Below are positions 4,666 through 33,554 of a stretch of DNA of 64,000 nt, piece after piece. Within the stretch, counting starts at the first letter, position 1; every line of letters begins with the position of its first letter. Under the pieces are notes generated by a model. The model was not told the origin of the DNA. It did not search any database and saw nothing but the letters and a program-made list of their open reading frames with translations. This stretch comes from Escherichia phage VTCCBPA_211. The stretch lies in sequence record PP989838.1; one strand, given 5' to 3'. The position numbers were made by a program, and so were the translations under genes.

Positions 4666-4688
4666 GTAAGACAATCTAAATAAACATA

Positions 4689-4720
4689 AGGCGCTATCTT
4701 AACGGGTAGCGCCTTTTCTT
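4689..4720 (+). terminator. rho-independent terminator
   Basis: ggcgcta...tagcgcc hairpin followed by ttttcttt. Confidence 0.6.
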
Positions 4721-6013: not shown

Positions 6014-6037
6014 AGCCGCCTTTGAGCGGCTTTTTGC
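6014..6037 (+). terminator. putative intrinsic terminator
   Basis: agccgc...gcggct hairpin followed by ttttt. Confidence 0.45.
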
Positions 6038-6098
6038 GTTGCTGTAAGTGCATTTGCGAGTGTATTTATAGCAACGGTCATGTGTTGCTTTCAGGTTT

Positions 6099-6126
6099 GC
6101 CCCGGCTACGGCTGGGGCTTTTTTAT
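6099..6126 (+). terminator. intrinsic terminator
   Basis: gccccggc tacg gctggggc hairpin followed by tttttta. Confidence 0.6.
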
Positions 6127-7060: not shown

Positions 7061-7285
7061 ATGAACCATCCACCAAAGAAGTTAACTCTTGGGGATCTAG
7101 ATTCAGGTGATGTGTTCCAATTCTTTGTGAACTCTGATGATTTTTATATGGCTTCCTGTAGATTTAACAAATCGGATGGTTGTAGAAATTATATGAACCT
7201 TTCGAACGGTGTGATCTCAGCAGATCGTAATACTGTGGTTGTTAAGAAGATTAACAATGCTCGACTTACAGATAAGGTGGATTAA
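7061..7285 (+). CDS. small-protein paralog family A, member 1
   Basis: ATG 7061 right after upstream stop; motif LTLGDLDSGDVFQF shared with six other ORFs. Confidence 0.55.
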   Translation: MNHPPKKLTLGDLDSGDVFQFFVNSDDFYMASCRFNKSDGCRNYMNLSNGVISADRNTVVVKKINNARLTDKVD

Positions 7286-7287
7286 CA

Positions 7288-7524
7288 GTGAAAGTTAATA
7301 TTAAATCTGATCGTACAATGCTTCGATTAAATAACATGAAGCCGGGCGTTCTGTTTGAGCGTAAAGAGTCCCTTTATATTAGAACTGACACATTGTACGC
7401 AGATAACTATGTGAACTGTGTTGATGTGGTAACTGGAAAGCTAATGCCTATTAAACGAGATGAAGTCTGCCAAGTACGCAGTGATCTCCACATAACAAAC
7501 ATAGAGGCTAAAGATGAAGATTGA
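7288..7524 (+). CDS. small-protein paralog family A, member 2
   Basis: Tandem with 7061 and 7514 genes; similar size and motif layout. Confidence 0.5.
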   Translation: MKVNIKSDRTMLRLNNMKPGVLFERKESLYIRTDTLYADNYVNCVDVVTGKLMPIKRDEVCQVRSDLHITNIEAKDED

Positions 7525-7768
7525 TCTGAACCTTAAAGCTAAAGAATTGCGTGTGGGTGATTTGAAACTTGGTGATGTGTTCCAAGTTAAGGCAACATGT
7601 ATTGATTATTACATGATTGTTCAGCTATACACACCACATGTGTCAGAGACTGATCTTCGGAATGGTTGTGTAGTTCTTAGTTTAAGCACCAATCAAGTAA
7701 TGAAGCTAGATTCAAACTTACCTGTTTCAGTCATCCATGATGTAGTAATTACTAATAAAGAAAAGTAA
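7514..7768 (+). CDS. small-protein paralog family A, member 3
   Basis: LRVGDLKLGDVFQV motif. Confidence 0.55.
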   Translation: MKIDLNLKAKELRVGDLKLGDVFQVKATCIDYYMIVQLYTPHVSETDLRNGCVVLSLSTNQVMKLDSNLPVSVIHDVVITNKEK

Positions 7769-7776
7769 CATCGACT

Positions 7777-7880
7777 TATAGCCCTTGTGTTTATCAGAGG
7801 GCTATGTGAGGGTGTTCCTCATTAACTTATTAATTCAGGCATATGCCACACCGCTAGGGAGAGCTTGCTCGAACATCCGG
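7777..7880 (+). promoter_or_regulatory. conserved intergenic element (hairpin + GTGAG + GCTAGGG...AACATCCG), copy 1
   Basis: atagccct...agggctat hairpin at 7777-7805 then gctagggagagcttgctcgaacatccgg at 7853-7880; near-identical copy at 12041-12150. Confidence 0.4.
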
Positions 7881-8126
7881 TGTTAGACTAAAACCTGTTA
7901 ATTTTCGAAAGACTTTCTGATATGTAGGGGTACATATTGGTTTGGGATTCAGGAGACTTCCTAGGGGTAGGGAGTCTTCACCAGTTGGGATAAGAGATAG
8001 CTCTAGAACCTGAACTCTTAGGCAGAGAAGGTCGGCAATGAGTACGCGGTCAGAATTAGTCTACTGACTAGGGCTATCCCTTATATCAACTGGCAATAAT
8101 GCCTCCACTAACAAAGAGAGATAGAT

Positions 8127-8267
8127 ATGAAAGTATCAACCAAACGTATGAACCGCCCTGAACGTATGGATGCAGTAGCTAATGGTGCTCTGAAACTGGA
8201 AGGCTTCTGGATTCATGCGATGTCAGCCATCCGTAACAAGCAAGGCAATTGGACCTATGGTAACTAA
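8127..8267 (+). CDS. small ORF (46 aa), speculative
   Basis: SD aaagagag before ATG 8127. Confidence 0.3.
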   Translation: MKVSTKRMNRPERMDAVANGALKLEGFWIHAMSAIRNKQGNWTYGN

Positions 8268-8457
8268 CAAAGAACAAAAAGCTATCTGTCGTTGTGCTCC
8301 TTTCTTCTTTGCAGAAGACGGGGATGTGTTCAGTAAGCTTGCACAAGAGTTAGGTTGTTCTCGAACTGGTGCTAAGGTAGTCTTTCATAAGTGGCTTATC
8401 TATTCTGACTCTTACGTGGCTATCAAATTAAGAGAACTGCAAATACACACGCTTTGA
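8215..8457 (+). CDS. hypothetical small protein (start uncertain, possibly ATG 8257)
   Basis: ORF overlapping previous small ORF; contains GDVF like family A. Confidence 0.35.
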   Translation: MRCQPSVTSKAIGPMVTNKEQKAICRCAPFFFAEDGDVFSKLAQELGCSRTGAKVVFHKWLIYSDSYVAIKLRELQIHTL

Positions 8458-8538
8458 ATAAAAGGCTGCCCAATCGGGTGGCCTTTGTTGTTTTAATTAA
8501 GGGTCAGCTCTTACTTAAACTAACAAGAGGAAGCTCAA

Positions 8539-8715
8539 ATGTCTAAGCAAACAATCAAACATACGCAAGCTGGTTACTCTTATGTTAACTCTCCTTGTTG
8601 TGGCGCTCGTGTCAATATGGTTAAGGAAGAGGTTCGTATCGTTCAGCGTGGCGCTACTGTTGTTCGTTCATGCTGTGTCTGTGGTAATGATATTTTTATC
8701 AAAGGTAAAGTATGA
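8539..8715 (+). CDS. small zinc-ribbon-like protein (58 aa)
   Basis: SD aagagga; CC..., ...CCVC cysteine pairs; ATGA overlap with next gene. Confidence 0.45.
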   Translation: MSKQTIKHTQAGYSYVNSPCCGARVNMVKEEVRIVQRGATVVRSCCVCGNDIFIKGKV

Positions 8716-8963
8716 AAAACTTTCAAGCTGCACCAATTACTAAAGTGATTGCAGTTAATGATGTGATGATGGCTGTTCCTCTGAACACTCGTTACATTGC
8801 AATTGACAAGATGGGTTATGTATGGGCTTGGAAGATTAAGCCTAGCTATAACGCACTGTTTGATGAGTTTGTTTGTACTGGTACTTACAGTCCTACATTC
8901 TTGGGTTTGTTTAGTGAGTTTGATGGTCAGTATAAAATCATCACACTCCCTGCTTGTGCTTGA
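8712..8963 (+). CDS. hypothetical protein, paralog of 8971-9204
   Basis: YIAIDKMGYVWAWKIKP vs YLATDSNGEVYGFTHKPEI. Confidence 0.5.
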   Translation: MKNFQAAPITKVIAVNDVMMAVPLNTRYIAIDKMGYVWAWKIKPSYNALFDEFVCTGTYSPTFLGLFSEFDGQYKIITLPACA

Positions 8964-8970
8964 GGTTCTG

Positions 8971-9204
8971 ATGGAGACTAAAGAGGTTAAATATTTTGGT
9001 GAAGTTGTTAAAGTAGGTAACTCTATAAGATATTTAGCAACTGATAGCAACGGCGAAGTGTATGGCTTTACCCATAAGCCAGAAATTCGTGGATATGCTT
9101 GGGCACTCCCTTATGGAACTCCATTCGAGACTGGAGGAGCTGTTTATCTTAATGATAATGGACCTATGTTTGCATGGAAAACATCTCTCGTTGAGGTAGT
9201 GTAA
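8971..9204 (+). CDS. hypothetical protein, paralog of 8712-8963
   Basis: ATG 8971 in frame of the longer track ORF; shared motif with upstream gene. Confidence 0.5.
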   Translation: METKEVKYFGEVVKVGNSIRYLATDSNGEVYGFTHKPEIRGYAWALPYGTPFETGGAVYLNDNGPMFAWKTSLVEVV

Positions 9205-9206
9205 TT

Positions 9207-9371
9207 ATGTTCAAGTGGTTTAAACGTCTATTCCATCTGCACGATTGGGTAATCCTTGAAAAGTATACACTAAAGATCACTGATGATTATGGCGATACGA
9301 AACATAAAGGTTTACGCTACATCATGCAGTGTAAAACGTGTGGTCATATCACCAAGCGAGATATGATCTAA
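9207..9371 (+). CDS. small CxxC protein (54 aa), speculative
   Basis: ATG 9207 3 nt after upstream stop; CKTCGH. Confidence 0.35.
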   Translation: MFKWFKRLFHLHDWVILEKYTLKITDDYGDTKHKGLRYIMQCKTCGHITKRDMI

Positions 9372-9379
9372 ATAATTCT

Positions 9380-9456
9380 GCGCCCTTAGTTCAATTGGAC
9401 AGAACATCGGATTTCTAATCCGTCGGTTACAGGTTCGAATCCTGTAGGGTGCGCCA
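9380..9456 (+). tRNA. tRNA-Arg (anticodon UCU)
   Basis: Hand-folded cloverleaf: acceptor GCGCCCT/AGGGTGC, D-arm GTTC..GAAC, anticodon loop TTTCTAA, T-arm ACAGG TTCGAAT CCTGT, 3' CCA encoded. Confidence 0.8.
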
Positions 9457-9475
9457 AATCGAATAGGAGGTAGCC

Positions 9476-9775
9476 ATGAGTTGGGGTGGTGTAATATCCT
9501 TAATCTGTATCTTCCTTGTCTGCATAGCCCTTACAGGCTGCGTACAGAGCCGTCCTGATGGATGGTGTGCAGTAGCAGTGGATGGTATTTGTGTATCTCG
9601 CTGGCATAAGGGTGAGAAGATTCCTTCTGGTGAGATTAATATGCGCTGGAACGGAGCAACCTGTTCTAATGCTAACCCTTCTATCAACGAAGAGAAGTCT
9701 ACACCGGATAATGTTGTTATTGATACAGCATTGTGGTGTGGTGGCTCTACGATTACAACCGGTAAGGAGTGGTGA
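9476..9775 (+). CDS. lipoprotein (lipobox LTGC), possibly superinfection-exclusion-like
   Basis: SD aggaggt; signal peptide plus lipobox ALTG|C; Cys-rich mature part. Confidence 0.55.
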   Translation: MSWGGVISLICIFLVCIALTGCVQSRPDGWCAVAVDGICVSRWHKGEKIPSGEINMRWNGATCSNANPSINEEKSTPDNVVIDTALWCGGSTITTGKEW

Positions 9776-9776
9776 T

Positions 9777-9974
9777 ATGAATTACACATCTACAAAGGTG
9801 TTAATTGATTCAATTAATAGCTCCTCAGAAGCTGTACAGGAGCGTTTAATACAAGATGTTAGCAATGACATTAAGTTCTTTGTTAAACGACGCCTGTTAG
9901 GTTCTAAGGCTTATTACAGAGCTAAAGCAGAGCTTACAAAGAGGGTGTTTCTCTTACACGGATTAGTGTATTAA
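9777..9974 (+). CDS. hypothetical small protein
   Basis: ATG 9777 just after upstream stop, SD ggagtgg. Confidence 0.45.
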   Translation: MNYTSTKVLIDSINSSSEAVQERLIQDVSNDIKFFVKRRLLGSKAYYRAKAELTKRVFLLHGLVY

Positions 9975-10268
9975 GAGCTTATCGTGAAGGATTCTTACGA
10001 GAGTCCTTTGAGATAGGACTTCAGATCTCCTATCAAACTAACATTCATGTAACTAGCCCATAAGGGCGTTACCCTTTAATAACCCAGCCCACTAAGGGGG
10101 CGGGAGTTTAGTGCTGGATTGGCTTTACGCTTATCCCTACAAAGGCAACCGATTGTTAGATCTTACATGCAATATTAACTAATAGGATAAGGGAGGATTC
10201 GTCCCCTCCCCCTATTTATTGAATCTTTATCTAAGCAAGTCTTATATAAATGTTTAATTGGAGGGTAT

Positions 10269-10580
10269 ATGAAACCTGAAAGAATTAGATGGACTCCTGA
10301 AGTTATAAAACAGCTAGAAGTCTTGGTTAATAATTATTCTTTAGAAACAGTTGCAGATATTATGGAAACAAACAAATCAGTTATTAGCAGAGCCTGCTCT
10401 AGTTTCCAGATAAAACGTAAACGTCAAAGAAAAGTCTGGTCTGAAGAAGAAGATCAGTTCCTTATCCGTAATGCTGGGTTCATGCCCATTCAGAGAATGG
10501 CTGACATGCTCGGTAGAAGTTATGCTGCTGTACAGAACAGGGCATGTATGCACCTTAACATTAGCCTAAAACTTAAATAG
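10269..10580 (+). CDS. putative DNA-binding (HTH/Myb-like) protein
   Basis: W..EE.. motif and basic KRKRQRK stretch. Confidence 0.45.
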   Translation: MKPERIRWTPEVIKQLEVLVNNYSLETVADIMETNKSVISRACSSFQIKRKRQRKVWSEEEDQFLIRNAGFMPIQRMADMLGRSYAAVQNRACMHLNISLKLK

Positions 10581-10588
10581 GAGTCAAG

Positions 10589-10819
10589 ATGAATTTTGAA
10601 CTAGTACCAAAAAGCAAAACACCCTCCAAGACTTTCTCTGACTTGGAGAATGGAGATGTTTTTCGTTTTATTGGTGACGATGTAGTCCCTAAATTCTGGA
10701 TAAAAACAGGGGAACATTCTGCAATGTGTGTTCGGAACCCTAAAGATATTTTCTTTCCGGTCCCTTTGTCCAATACTGTTGATCTGTTCGAATCTAAACT
10801 TATTATTCAGGGTAAATAG
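10589..10819 (+). CDS. small-protein paralog family A, member 4
   Basis: TFSDLENGDVFRF motif. Confidence 0.55.
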   Translation: MNFELVPKSKTPSKTFSDLENGDVFRFIGDDVVPKFWIKTGEHSAMCVRNPKDIFFPVPLSNTVDLFESKLIIQGK

Positions 10820-10820
10820 T

Positions 10821-11069
10821 ATGAAGATTACTCACAAGAAAGAAGAAGTGACTACGGTTGATCTCAACTCCCTTCCCAGCGGAGCAGTATTTAAATTCCC
10901 TGAGAGTGCTACTCTCTATGTTAAAGGGTCTGTGTCTGAAAGTCCTCATGTAACCGTTAACTCTGATCGAGCAATTACCCTTCGTTTATCCGATGGTAAC
11001 GTAACAGCACCTTCTATCTGGTGCCGAGTTGTTCCTGTGTCGGCAGAACTTTTGGTGGATAACACATAA
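10821..11069 (+). CDS. small-protein paralog family A, member 5
   Basis: ATG 10821 immediately after upstream stop; LNSLPSGAVFKF. Confidence 0.55.
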   Translation: MKITHKKEEVTTVDLNSLPSGAVFKFPESATLYVKGSVSESPHVTVNSDRAITLRLSDGNVTAPSIWCRVVPVSAELLVDNT

Positions 11070-11314
11070 TGAAAATCATCCCAAAGAAAAAGGATAATAC
11101 GGTACGATTGGAAACAATCATTCCTGGAAATCCTTTCGTGGTTCAGAACGGAAGTGCTTCTCCTCAATATTACATGAGGGTTGAAAATGCTTCTTGTAAC
11201 ATCCGTATAGCCAGTGGTTGGGTTCCTGTGGTAAACCTTTTCACAGGTGTACTATCTGTTAAAGGTCTTGACGATCAGGTAGAAATGATTCGTATGTCTG
11301 TGGTTCAGGAGTAA
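11069..11314 (+). CDS. small-protein paralog family A, member 6
   Basis: RLETIIPGNPFVVQ. Confidence 0.5.
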   Translation: MKIIPKKKDNTVRLETIIPGNPFVVQNGSASPQYYMRVENASCNIRIASGWVPVVNLFTGVLSVKGLDDQVEMIRMSVVQE

Positions 11315-11321
11315 CAAGTAG

Positions 11322-11570
11322 ATGAGCACCATTAGTATTAAAGTTAAGCATAAGAAAGAGAACATCCTCAGGGTTATGGATTTATTCAGAGCCGACGTCT
11401 TTACTTTAAAACAGTGTCCAACTTCCCATACCTACATGCTAACGAACCCGAGCAATGGTCTTAAGCCCGCTGGGGCGGTTAATCTGGGAACTGGAGAACT
11501 TCGGACAATTGCTGGTGATATGGTTGTTGATGAGAAGTTTAGTAAAGTCGAAATGATCTTAACTCCTTAG
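11322..11570 (+). CDS. small-protein paralog family A, member 7
   Basis: RVMDLFRADVFTL. Confidence 0.5.
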   Translation: MSTISIKVKHKKENILRVMDLFRADVFTLKQCPTSHTYMLTNPSNGLKPAGAVNLGTGELRTIAGDMVVDEKFSKVEMILTP

Positions 11571-11801
11571 GAAAACAAATGAGACTTAAAGCATATTCTT
11601 ATGACGATATGATTAACCAAAAAGGCTTCGGTCAACGACAGCCTGATGGTTCAATTATCTGGTTCGTAAACGGACAGAAAAAGGTAGCTAAATAAGCCCT
11701 CTTCTCTCCTCCTTTTAGTACTATGACGCCTCTCTGTGGGCGGCCCAATTTGCGTAGGGAATTCCCTCTACGCAGCCATGACTTTTTAAGGAATTTCCCC
11801 T

Positions 11802-12035
11802 ATGTCTAAAGTAAGCGCAATTGATGCAATCCGTCAACCATTCCAGTTCCAATCTAAATCAACCCAAACCTTCAGTGAGCCTAAGCAAATTCGCTTGGGC
11901 GGCACAGAAAAAACTGTGTTTGATCTGGCTAAAAATAAGAGCGTTACCGTAGTTGATGGTGGCACTCTGGTTAACGTTTCCCATCGAATCCGAACTGGCA
12001 AAACTGCCAAAGATCGTGCTAAGAAAGGCGAGTAA
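11802..12035 (+). CDS. hypothetical protein
   Basis: ORF followed by the conserved hairpin element. Confidence 0.5.
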   Translation: MSKVSAIDAIRQPFQFQSKSTQTFSEPKQIRLGGTEKTVFDLAKNKSVTVVDGGTLVNVSHRIRTGKTAKDRAKKGE

Positions 12036-12040
12036 CGCCT

Positions 12041-12150
12041 ATAGCCTTCTTCGGAGGGCTATGTGAGTTATTCTGACTCAACTAACCTAATCTTAATATA
12101 TTTCCCGTATGGGGCCGATGCTAGGGCGAGGAGTGTTCCTCAAACATCCG
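12041..12150 (+). promoter_or_regulatory. conserved intergenic element, copy 2
   Basis: atagccttcttcggagggctat hairpin then gctagggcgaggagtgttcctcaaacatccg. Confidence 0.4.
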
Positions 12151-12217
12151 TCGGATAGATATTTTAAGAGCAGGTTATCCACAGATATTGGGTAATATCT
12201 TTTTGTATTTAAAGCTT

Positions 12218-12246
12218 GACTCTTTTCGGAGAGTCCTTTTTTAAAT
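12218..12246 (+). terminator. intrinsic terminator
   Basis: gactct...agagtc hairpin followed by cttttttaaatt. Confidence 0.55.
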
Positions 12247-12261
12247 TCAACGAGAGGAAAT

Positions 12262-12414
12262 ATGTCTAAATTAGATTTAAAACTGCTAGCAGCAGCGGTA
12301 GTGATTTGTGCACTAGCACTGGTAACGCAGAGAACATCTGGATTTATTCAGTGTTTCTTTTCTGGGCAATCCACTTATCAGTGGGTTATTGACGAGTGTA
12401 AACAACAGGAGTAA
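12262..12414 (+). CDS. small membrane/secreted peptide (50 aa), speculative
   Basis: SD gagagga; hydrophobic LLAAAVVICALALV. Confidence 0.35.
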   Translation: MSKLDLKLLAAAVVICALALVTQRTSGFIQCFFSGQSTYQWVIDECKQQE

Positions 12415-28201: not shown

Positions 28202-28273
28202 TTGGTAGTAGATATGATAACTCTCAAATGTATATAGAGTACAATAAGAATTTGTATTTTACAGGAGAGAGTT

Positions 28274-33162: not shown

Positions 33163-33486
33163 ATGGCAGATCATGTAGGAAAGAGAGATTATGCACAAGA
33201 AAGACGTACCGCAATTGCCCGTGGTGAAACAGGCGTTGGGAGCAAGAGCGGAGATGCTCAGCGCCACCGTGCACGTCGCATCGTTGAAAAGCGCGATGGA
33301 AAAGCTGCTGTCAGAGGTAAAGATGTTGGACACAAACGAGCCATCAAGTCAGGAGGCTCTAATGCGTCAAGCAACTTACGTGTTGAAACAGTCAGCGGAA
33401 ATCGTTCAGCTGGCGGCAAAAGTGGAGATCGAGCTGGGAAGGCAGCTGGTGCTGCTAAGCGAAAAGGAGCTTTAAGCTCATCGTAA
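33163..33486 (+). CDS. highly basic Gly/Lys/Arg-rich protein, unknown function
   Basis: Strong SD aaggag; RNY codon periodicity favours this frame over overlapping 33191 ORF; terminator follows. Confidence 0.55.
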   Translation: MADHVGKRDYAQERRTAIARGETGVGSKSGDAQRHRARRIVEKRDGKAAVRGKDVGHKRAIKSGGSNASSNLRVETVSGNRSAGGKSGDRAGKAAGAAKRKGALSSS

Positions 33487-33490
33487 TATA

Positions 33491-33520
33491 AGGCTACCCA
33501 AATGGGTGGCCTTTTCTTTT
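33491..33520 (+). terminator. intrinsic terminator
   Basis: aggctaccc...gggtggcct hairpin followed by tttcttttat. Confidence 0.6.
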
Positions 33521-33554
33521 ATATAAACCAAATTAAACTTCTTAGGTAATAAAT

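Follow-up and report, generated by a model that had tools for sequence, protein, structure and literature searches.

Two copies of an undescribed structured RNA in the early region of phiEco32-like phages

What are the two similar sequences that follow early-gene stop codons in Escherichia phage VTCCBPA_211? The stretch analysed here (the window) comprises 64,000 nucleotides of sequence record PP989838.1, belongs to a phiEco32-like Kuravirus and is oriented along early and middle transcription, the reverse of the GenBank orientation. An earlier inspection of the letters alone (the sequence-only reading) had described a conserved element of roughly 100 nucleotides (nt), present at least twice and opening with a strong hairpin directly after a stop codon, and had suggested a structured RNA, a processing site or a specialized promoter. 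In phiEco32, the equivalent gaps lie between genes 113 and 112 (site 1) and between genes 91 and 90 (site 2), and neither carries an annotation in phiEco32 or in most relatives. Our comparison indicates that the element is very probably a functional RNA structure of the sense strand. The best explanation for both sites is that they are paralogous copies of one cis-encoded structured RNA within a long σ70-dependent early transcript.

All of the features named by the sequence-only reading are in place. TAA stop codons at 7766–7768 and 12033–12035 are followed by hairpins (H1) at 7777–7806 and 12040–12063, GGGCTATGTGAG has two exact occurrences, GCTAGGGNGAG is located at 7853 and 12120, and AACATCCG at 7872 and 12143. 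The combined pattern CTAGGG-N(8–22)-AACATC occurs twice, compared with 0.10 occurrences expected by chance. When a covariance model of the element core (R1) was run over the 64 kb with filters off, the two sites scored 79.4 bits (12100–12161) and 60.2 bits (7833–7890), and the next best position scored 12.3 bits. The repeated element is therefore real and present in exactly two copies in the window, but the unit is longer than the proposed 100 nt or so. A gapless direct-repeat search did not report it because indels separate the copies. One block that had been taken as conserved, GTGTTCCTCA, is a coincidence, because it occupies non-homologous positions: the loop and 3′ arm of helix H2 at site 1 (7812–7821), and the loop and 3′ arm of the H4 inner hairpin at site 2 (12133–12142), where the tetraloop is hypervariable among relatives.

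Both copies adopt a common predicted fold. The upstream stop codon lies in a conserved RGTRAC and is followed by H1, H2, an AU-rich linker (UAACYUAWU), H3 (a stem of 3–4 base pairs (bp) with the loop RUAU) and H4. The last of these comprises an outer stem of 6–7 bp, a 7 × 7 internal loop (5′ CUAGGG-M, 3′ R-AACAUC) and a short hairpin that opens with GAG and closes with CUC. We compared phiEco32, SU7/ECBP2 (Suseptimavirus), Salmonella phages 7-11 and pSal-SNUABM-01 and metagenomic relatives, and GCUAGGG.GAG...CUC.AACAUCCG is invariant in 29 distinct sequences. The two internal-loop positions that do vary are found as A/G (18 sequences), C/A (9) or A/A (2) and never as C/G, which looks like isosteric non-canonical pairing.

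The stems surrounding these nucleotides change in sequence and keep their pairing. The outer stem of H4 is found as ACACCG/CGGUGU, UCACCG/CGGUGA, CCGAUG/CGUCGG, UCGGUG/CGCCGA, AAUAGCG/CGCUAUU and AUACCG/CGGUAU, the H3 stem as GGC/GCC, GCC/GGC and CCC/GGG, and the inner hairpin as GAGC/GCUC, GAGAC/GUCUC and GAGGA/UCCUC. Pairing is present in 95.6% of alignment cells, compared with 30–44% when the partners are slid by 1–3 columns, and 7 of the 14 pairs have changes on both sides. The covariation score of 0.447 (0.156 in shuffles) was reached by 0 of 500 shuffles. These statistics come from a model-guided alignment of the 29 sequences, in which fitting to the model favours structure; the same compensatory pairs are also seen in plain MAFFT alignments. 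Furthermore, G·U pairs are confined to the + (sense) strand, and thus the structure belongs to the sense transcript. The proposal of a structured RNA is strongly supported by these observations, which include compensatory changes in three core helices across at least eight phage lineages and the strand-specific G·U pairs. Related phages hold both further copies and compensatory changes, and on this count the refutation foreseen in the sequence-only reading clearly fails.

The same data bear on whether the conserved letters are instead a DNA-level signal, such as a promoter, a palindromic operator, a site for single-strand initiation or a DnaA-box origin. Copy 2 contains a perfect high-affinity DnaA box (TTATCCACA, within GGTTATCCACAG) at 12175–12183, which is invariant in all copy-2 elements, along with a weak σ70-like match at 12073–12102, and in Kuravirus and 7-11 the inverted repeat that forms the base of H1 is invariant. 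However, the spacing of the H1 half-sites varies from 10 to 16 nt with arm complementarity kept, the H1 sequence of one metagenomic relative (contig L052, described below) is unrelated, G·U pairs are tolerated on the sense strand only, and copy 1 has no DnaA box. An origin of replication was rejected, as cumulative GC skew merely tracks the direction of transcription and has no inflection near either site. We therefore regard a DNA signal as very unlikely.

The specialized promoter put forward by the sequence-only reading fares no better. The promoter recognized by gp36, the phage sigma factor of phiEco32, is a single element, tAATGTAtA (PMC8948821, PMC4331800), located 6–8 bp upstream of the transcription start (PMC8948821). 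No match to it with one mismatch or fewer lies inside 7764–8126 or 12030–12245. The only σ70-like candidate, CTGACT-18-TATATT at 12073–12102 (9 of 12 positions), has no counterpart at site 1, and its hexamers degrade in SU7, 7-11 and pSal.

The element is an undescribed structured RNA motif, and no described family covers it. With Rfam 15 at the gathering threshold, the sole hit in the window is a transfer RNA (tRNA-Arg, 9380–9453), and at E ≤ 10 there is nothing in 7700–8200 and only a 13-bit chance hit in 11990–12300. A tRNA or transfer-messenger RNA (tmRNA) was rejected because the tRNA-Arg at 9380 is the only gene that ARAGORN calls in the window. Nor is H1 an intrinsic terminator, as at both sites it is followed by GUGAG.. 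and no U-run. On a hand check, readings of the internal loop and H3 as a K-turn, a sarcin–ricin motif or an 11-nt tetraloop receptor did not agree with the consensus, and a CsrA-type sponge with GGA loops was rejected because half of the variants have no GGA in their GGGG and UAGGG loops. A helix closing the element through the 5′ GUAAC was also set aside: at copy 2, the candidate downstream partners (GUUAU/UGUUA) compete with better-supported ones (GUUAUU in H2, and the linker with AGGUUA in P1), and at copy 1 the pairing is not kept in phiEco32 or NJ01. Neither site is in the published SU10 promoter and terminator table, and the 7-11 and phiEco32 papers, as read in part or searched by keyword, do not mention the element. 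Its general kind is known: a folded regulatory RNA within the early operon of a phage that may act with a small basic protein.

Its compact multi-helix junction, with roughly 20 invariant nucleotides and a position between genes of a phage operon, could also call to mind a novel ribozyme that would split the polycistronic early transcript by cleaving itself. The resemblance is one of architecture, and no Rfam ribozyme family shows any likeness to the element, so that we consider this idea extremely improbable.

Copy 2 spans 12030–12177 (this and the other parts described for the two sites are on the + strand). Its 5′ boundary is GAGTAAC (12030–12036), which includes the TAA stop codon, and is followed by H1 (12040–12063; UAUAGCCUUC-UUCG-GAGGGCUAUG) and H2 (12064–12080; UGAGUUA-UUC-UGACUCA), in which one U–A pair becomes C–G in SU7-type phages. 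The stop-codon motif AGUAAC could instead pair with GUUAUU (12067–12072), in competition with H2; the SU7 double change favours H2, and one-sided changes are compatible with either. H3 (12104–12113) is CCC-GUAU-GGG. H4 (12115–12154) has the outer stem CCGAUG/CGUCGG, an internal loop of CUAGGGC (12121–12127) opposite AAACAUC (12142–12148) and the inner hairpin GAGGA-GUGU-UCCUC (12128–12141). The hypervariable tetraloop of this hairpin (12133–12136 and orthologues) reads GUGU, ACAC, GUAA, AUAC, AUAU, ACAG or AUAA, and the stem and flanking loops are invariant.

A further helix, P1, closes a three-way junction around H3 and H4 of copy 2. Its 5′ strand (12083–12096) consists of UAACCU (12083–12088) and UCUUAA (12091–12096), and its 3′ strand of UUAAGA (12164–12169) and AGGUUA (12172–12177); the 5′ half of the DnaA box doubles as this 3′ strand. 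P1 is predicted by RNAalifold and by single-sequence folding, and it exhibits compensatory differences in 7-11, pSal and the relative L028. The folding z-score of the copy-2 region (221 nt) is −4.9.

Copy 2 is followed by a short hairpin, whose loop is GGGU, and by an intrinsic terminator at 12218–12242 (GACUCU-UUUCGG-AGAGUC-C-UUUUUU), which consists of a hairpin (12218–12235) with a run of six U nucleotides behind it and has an A-rich tract upstream. This terminator is 63 nt downstream of copy 2 and 19 nt ahead of the next start codon (12262). Terminator and copy 2 are co-conserved in Kuravirus, Suseptimavirus and the 7-11-like phages. Phages of E. coli and Salmonella have copy 2 and its terminator in common at roughly 70% identity over 210 nt, although their flanking genes differ. 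Only around 27–32% of open reading frames (ORFs) are homologous between those genomes, according to their published comparison (PMC8948821).

Variable stems, an invariant loop, a closing P1 and a terminator 40 nt past P1 are typical of ligand-sensing aptamers, and the P1/H3/H4 junction and invariant loop might bind a small molecule that tunes the terminator at copy 2 or gp112 translation at copy 1. However, there is no conserved antiterminator: on inspection, the P1 3′ strand can form at most 4–5 bp with the 5′ arm of the terminator, and not even these in pSal and L047. A riboswitch-style antiterminator was accordingly rejected for lack of a conserved alternative pairing. In addition, copy 1 is roughly 240 nt from the ribosome-binding site, and Rfam has no match even at E ≤ 10. 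The aptamer explanation has, in our estimate, very little probability.

Copy 1 spans 7764–7902. The stop codon of the upstream ORF (7766–7768) sits inside the RGTRAC at 7764–7769, and H1 (7777–7806; AUAGCCCUU...GAGGGCUAU) has no U-tract behind it. H2 (7806–7822) is GUGAGG-GUGUU-CCUCAU and holds GTGTTCCTCA, the linker occupies 7823–7837, and H3 (7838–7847) is GGC-AUAU-GCC. H4 (7848–7883) has the outer stem ACACCG/CGGUGU, the invariant internal loop CUAGGGA (7854–7860) opposite GAACAUC (7871–7877) and the inner hairpin GAG-CUUG-CUC (7861–7870). A counterpart of P1 is tentative here: AUUAAC (7821–7826) could pair with GUUAAU (7897–7902), as seen only in the minimum-free-energy fold of SU7.

The copy-1 transcript continues as a structured leader of around 240 nt (7884–8126) that reaches the ribosome-binding site of the gp112 homologue. 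This leader contains H5 (7917–7940), H6 (7952–7979), the long stem H7 (7982–8093) and the hairpin H8 (8092–8103), and 10 of its pairs have compensatory changes on both sides. H5 and H6 share the apex UA-GGGG-UA, which is kept in Kuravirus and Suseptimavirus (7917–7979), and the base of H6 is ..GGGAGUCUUCA. UAGGG appears four times in 250 nt, counting the CUAGGG of H4 and CUAGGGC at 8068; these could be repeated protein sites or loop–loop contacts. The tip of H7 carries an optional insertion of 58 nt (8006–8065) that is present in the window, phiEco32 and KBNP1711-type phages and absent from the NJ01, SU7 and ECBP2 types, whose stems have very different, compensating sequences.

The base of the copy-2 terminator hairpin (..AGAGUCCUU..) resembles the base of H6 and that of a hairpin that follows the element in newly found lineages (..GGGAGUCCUUCAG). 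Thus, the repeated unit begins at the stop codon, takes in H4 and ends with a hairpin further downstream that has the conserved base ..AGUC(C)UU.. and is represented by H6 at site 1 and by the terminator hairpin at site 2. Because these hairpin bases are alike, the ancestral repeat was probably some 200 nt long.

Around 100 phiEco32-like coliphages (Kuravirus, Gordonclarkvirinae) are 91–95% identical over 4.8 kb around both sites. Kuravirus and Suseptimavirus have two copies each, and the 7-11-like Moazamivirus have one, of the copy-2 type and with its terminator. Exact-motif scans of IMG/VR, metagenome contigs and genomes from GTDB returned mostly chance hits outside this phage group (12–22 bits with the full model) and one new member, L052 (JBOFGJ010000684.1), a contig binned to a Flavobacterium metagenome-assembled genome (MAG). 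It encodes an Srd-like σ70 decoy and is evidently a phage of the same broad group. Another contig, L056 (CALKAR010000070.1), carries the element in a Peptococcaceae MAG bin and is essentially Kuravirus sequence; L052 and L056 are probably both mis-binned phage contigs. No element was found in more distant relatives at 44 loci for which the COOH.NH2-ligase gene served as anchor. The 41 kb of Cronobacter phage GAP52 that we examined contain neither the element nor a gp112 homologue nor the terminator, and all that the homologous gap holds is a hairpin lacking a U-tract.

The gene directly downstream of copy 1 (8127–8267) encodes the gp112 homologue, a 46-amino-acid (aa) protein with a basic N-terminus (KRMNRPERMD..NGALK). 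Its homologues are 44–59 aa long, share the invariant motif KRMNRP..M....NG..K and have a net charge of about +5 to +8 by residue count on the alignment, and the longer ones start with the Arg/Lys-rich MNRRNTRAFRKTAHKRMNRPERMD. In an AlphaFold model of gp112, one helix comes after an N-terminal segment that is non-helical (coil) and predicted disordered. When the small genes near the two sites were profiled with tblastn, gp112, gp99 and gp92 proved to be common to phiEco32 and 7-11 and absent from the GAP52 region examined.

A profile search then recovered distant gp112 homologues (roughly 46–56% identical to the window protein) on metagenomic phage contigs, and these offered a way to reach new loci through the protein alone, before any scan with the RNA model. 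In all four lineages reached in this manner (L115–117, L118–120, L121 and L122–123), the element is 100–470 nt upstream of the gp112 gene, with scores of 44–58 bits. As the element also directly precedes gp112 in Kuravirus and Suseptimavirus, this order is found in six lineages, and every gp112-bearing lineage that could be examined fully carries the element. Leaving L052 aside, the element in turn occurs only where gp112 is encoded.

The terminator behind copy 2 stands before a long run of early-class genes. The first gp36-type promoter motif downstream of it is near 28226, for which the comparison is the SU10 middle promoter between coding sequences CDS68 and CDS69 (published SU10 S2 table), and σ70-like matches downstream of the terminator are no more common than in shuffled sequence. 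Because of these two features, some 16 kb of early-class genes past the terminator appear to depend on read-through. The early control region of the window agrees with the published SU10 table, with a terminator at 2051 and then strong σ70-like promoters at 2360 and 2815 (region 2051–2843). The 7-11 study validated just two early promoters, at the genome end, and its authors consider an antitermination strategy very likely and still to be defined (PMC8948821).

We propose, tentatively and with well short of an even chance of being right, that the element is an operator RNA analogous to the nut sites of phage lambda, recognized by gp112 and controlling both gp112 expression and terminator read-through. 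The invariant internal loop of H4 would be the docking site for gp112. Copy 1, as the leader of gp112's own gene, would serve for loading, autoregulation or both, and copy 2 would decide whether polymerase stops at the terminator or continues into the next 16 kb or so of early genes, for which no promoter is known. The arrangement as a whole would work like nutL–N and nutR–tR1.

In lambda, the nutL–N and nutR–tR1 layout combines a small Arg-rich protein with a nut site before an intrinsic terminator. The phage element is laid out in an analogous manner, a resemblance of layout that does not amount to membership: copy 1 precedes gp112 (8127) and copy 2 precedes the terminator (12218). Thus, in both systems two related RNA sites are located in early operons, one in the leader of a gene that encodes a small Arg-rich protein and the other after an early-gene stop codon and ahead of an intrinsic terminator, and the recognition nucleotides are fixed whereas the stems vary. 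Unlike nut, which is around 35 nt long, the phage element measures roughly 140–200 nt with five helices, lacks boxA and lacks a 5-bp boxB stem with a GNRA-like pentaloop. The phage here is also a virulent C3 podophage.

Several observations weigh against this operator proposal. The protein has no Pfam, PHROG-function or PDB match and no detectable sequence similarity to lambda N, and its structural model is of low confidence (mean predicted local distance difference test score, pLDDT, of 67). No boxA-like NusB/E site is present in the element: by inspection, the stretch nearest to lambda-type boxA (CGCUCUUA or GCUCUUUAACAA) is UGCUCGAACAUCC or CCUCAAACAUCC, with no U-run. A lambda-type boxB pentaloop hairpin was likewise rejected, because the inner loop is hypervariable and the conserved nucleotides are in the 7 × 7 internal loop instead. 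Strong terminator-like hairpins inside early genes at 4688 (4688–4715), 6014 and 6099 (6014–6118) are upstream of copy 1, and therefore copy 1 cannot be what brings polymerase that far. H6, the hairpin at copy 1 that is homologous to the terminator, has no U-tract.

Gene arrangement raises further points. In the pSal-like contigs (L124 and L125), which have the 7-11 arrangement, gp112 is away from any copy; in complete genomes of the 7-11/pSal type the sole copy is of the copy-2 type and lies around 12 kb downstream; and L052 has no gp112 homologue within the 8 kb examined. Moreover, the co-occurrence of gp112 and the element partly reflects shared ancestry, and the element could simply be the 5′ untranslated region (UTR) of gp112.

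The element-bearing 7-11-like phages also encode a ProQ/FinO-domain protein (L115, 19454–19894; L116, 10741–11181; L118, 17080–17517; L003, 13041–13769). This protein is another possible partner of the element, because RNA chaperones of its type bind structured RNAs and terminator hairpins.

The phages phiEco32 and 7-11 serve as models in the study of sigma factors and RNA polymerase inhibitors of phage origin. In both, the host polymerase passes intrinsic terminators on its way over tens of kilobases of early and middle genes. For antitermination, the element offers a concrete candidate, comprising an RNA with defined invariant nucleotides, a 46-aa candidate partner and a specific terminator. 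Even if antitermination proves wrong, an undescribed RNA motif with clear covariation is present in more than 100 sequenced coliphages used in therapy collections, where it is currently unannotated or mis-annotated as small ORFs.

Two other known RNAs share aspects of this arrangement. The putL and putR sites of phage HK022 likewise form a pair of paralogous multi-helix RNAs that a single phage carries in its early transcripts, upstream of terminators, and they too were recognized through compensatory differences between copies. However, put is a two-stem RNA near the early promoters that acts without a phage protein, and its fold and sequence are unrelated to those of the element, which has five helices, is separated by around 5 and 10 kb from the promoter-like sites (2360 and 2815) and occurs together with a particular small protein. 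The eps-associated RNA (EAR) of Bacillus is likewise a structured RNA in an intergenic gap of a long operon, with proposed read-through of internal terminators, but this bacterial RNA is present as a single copy, has an unrelated structure and is not adjoined by a gene for a partner protein.

The position of the element right at the stop codons brings another explanation into play. Phages that are otherwise collinear differ in the genes upstream of both copies (site 1 alone has at least six distinct C-termini), and the mosaic break falls exactly at the stop codon within RGTRAC (7764–7769 and 12030–12036). For this reason, the element marks a recombination or mosaic junction. The PeSL of T4-type phages is also a stem-loop element exactly where early genes are shuffled between relatives. 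It is a short stem-loop with a σ70 early promoter, in many copies, whereas the element has no conserved promoter, one or two copies and a far larger core with invariant loops; PeSL membership was therefore rejected.

An element that starts exactly at stop codons, where upstream genes are swapped, could act as processing or stability punctuation that needs no phage protein. H1 and H2 would protect the 3′ end of the upstream message, the linker would be cut (for example, by RNase E), and H3 and H4 would protect the downstream 5′ end. Conserved RNase III sites in T7 early RNA offer a precedent, H1 is a stable hairpin without a U-tract, and a conserved single-stranded AU-rich linker separates the two structured halves. 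At copy 2, however, the linker is paired in P1 with covariation and so is not freely accessible. Hairpins that protect ends need neither invariant loop nucleotides nor an invariant GAG/CUC stem, and punctuation leaves the gp112 link and the co-conserved terminator unexplained. We thus consider punctuation unlikely, though the likeliest of the alternatives to the nut-like operator.

Copy 2 has a host connection that copy 1 lacks. Over 12162–12203 (+), 36 of 42 nt (86%) are identical to the strand antisense to the 5′ leader of E. coli nrdD, which encodes the anaerobic ribonucleotide reductase. This stretch matches one place in 5,423 of 5,426 complete E. coli genomes, antisense and just upstream of the nrdD start codon. 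Local alignment of the Kuravirus and E. coli nrdD regions gives 39 identities in 46 positions, and the Salmonella-phage versions match Salmonella nrdD at between 17 of 18 and 27 of 29 positions. A copy-2 transcript would be complementary to the nrdD leader over around 35 nt, up to a point just 5′ of the Shine–Dalgarno sequence. RNAduplex without length limits gave full-length duplexes only and was uninformative.

These matches raise the possibility that copy 2 is a stable small RNA (sRNA) of around 200 nt, released from a 3′ UTR, ending at the 12218–12242 terminator and pairing with the host nrdD leader, with copy 1 as a related non-coding RNA or leader. The terminator with its U6 tail and upstream A-rich tract and the low folding z-score would suit such an sRNA, and copy 2 resembles 3′ UTR-derived sRNAs of the Hfq/ProQ type in its conserved 3′ UTR, Rho-independent terminator with a U-tail and long complementarity to the nrdD leader. 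The similarity to that class is one of sequence and applies to copy 2 only, as the shared module also occurs without a terminator or host match at copy 1. Site 1 has no host match at all, and thus nrdD pairing cannot be the function of the shared module. Furthermore, P1 pairing already accounts for half of the stretch that matches (UUAAGA..AGGUUA), the central 11 nt of this stretch are the best DnaA-box consensus and could be convergent, and 7-11 itself shares only 17 of 18 nt. An sRNA of this kind is, in our view, distinctly improbable as the explanation of the element.

The nrdD-like stretch itself could represent a seed for antisense pairing, a mimic of a DnaA box or DNA captured from the host. 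As the stretch overlaps both the P1 3′ strand and an optimal DnaA box, a convergent origin or an ancient capture is possible. The similarity suggests possible phage interference with host nucleotide metabolism. If it were joined to the operator proposal, virulent C3 podophages would have a new protein–RNA transcription control, in which the 45-aa Arg-rich gp112 and a junction RNA of about 140 nt gate an early-operon terminator and the terminated copy-2 RNA of around 200 nt doubles as an antisense-like RNA against the host nrdD leader; we rate this combination as a long shot.

Two observations were made away from the copies. Two terminator-like hairpins in the window, at 8457–8495 and 33485–33523, are 79% identical over 39 nt (AATAAAAGGCTGCCCAATCGGGTGGCCTTTGTTGTTTTA), the first of them being around 580 nt downstream of copy 1 and beyond two small genes. 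In Salmonella phage 7-11 (L002), a 712-nt unannotated gap at 7072–7784 follows the gp112 homologue. This gap contains two tRNA-like T-arm/acceptor pieces (GGTTCGAATCC.. and GGTTCGACTCC..), which ARAGORN does not call, and a match to permuted tmRNA that falls below threshold (RF04321; 29.6 bits, with gathering set at 47 bits, E = 4.5e-4).

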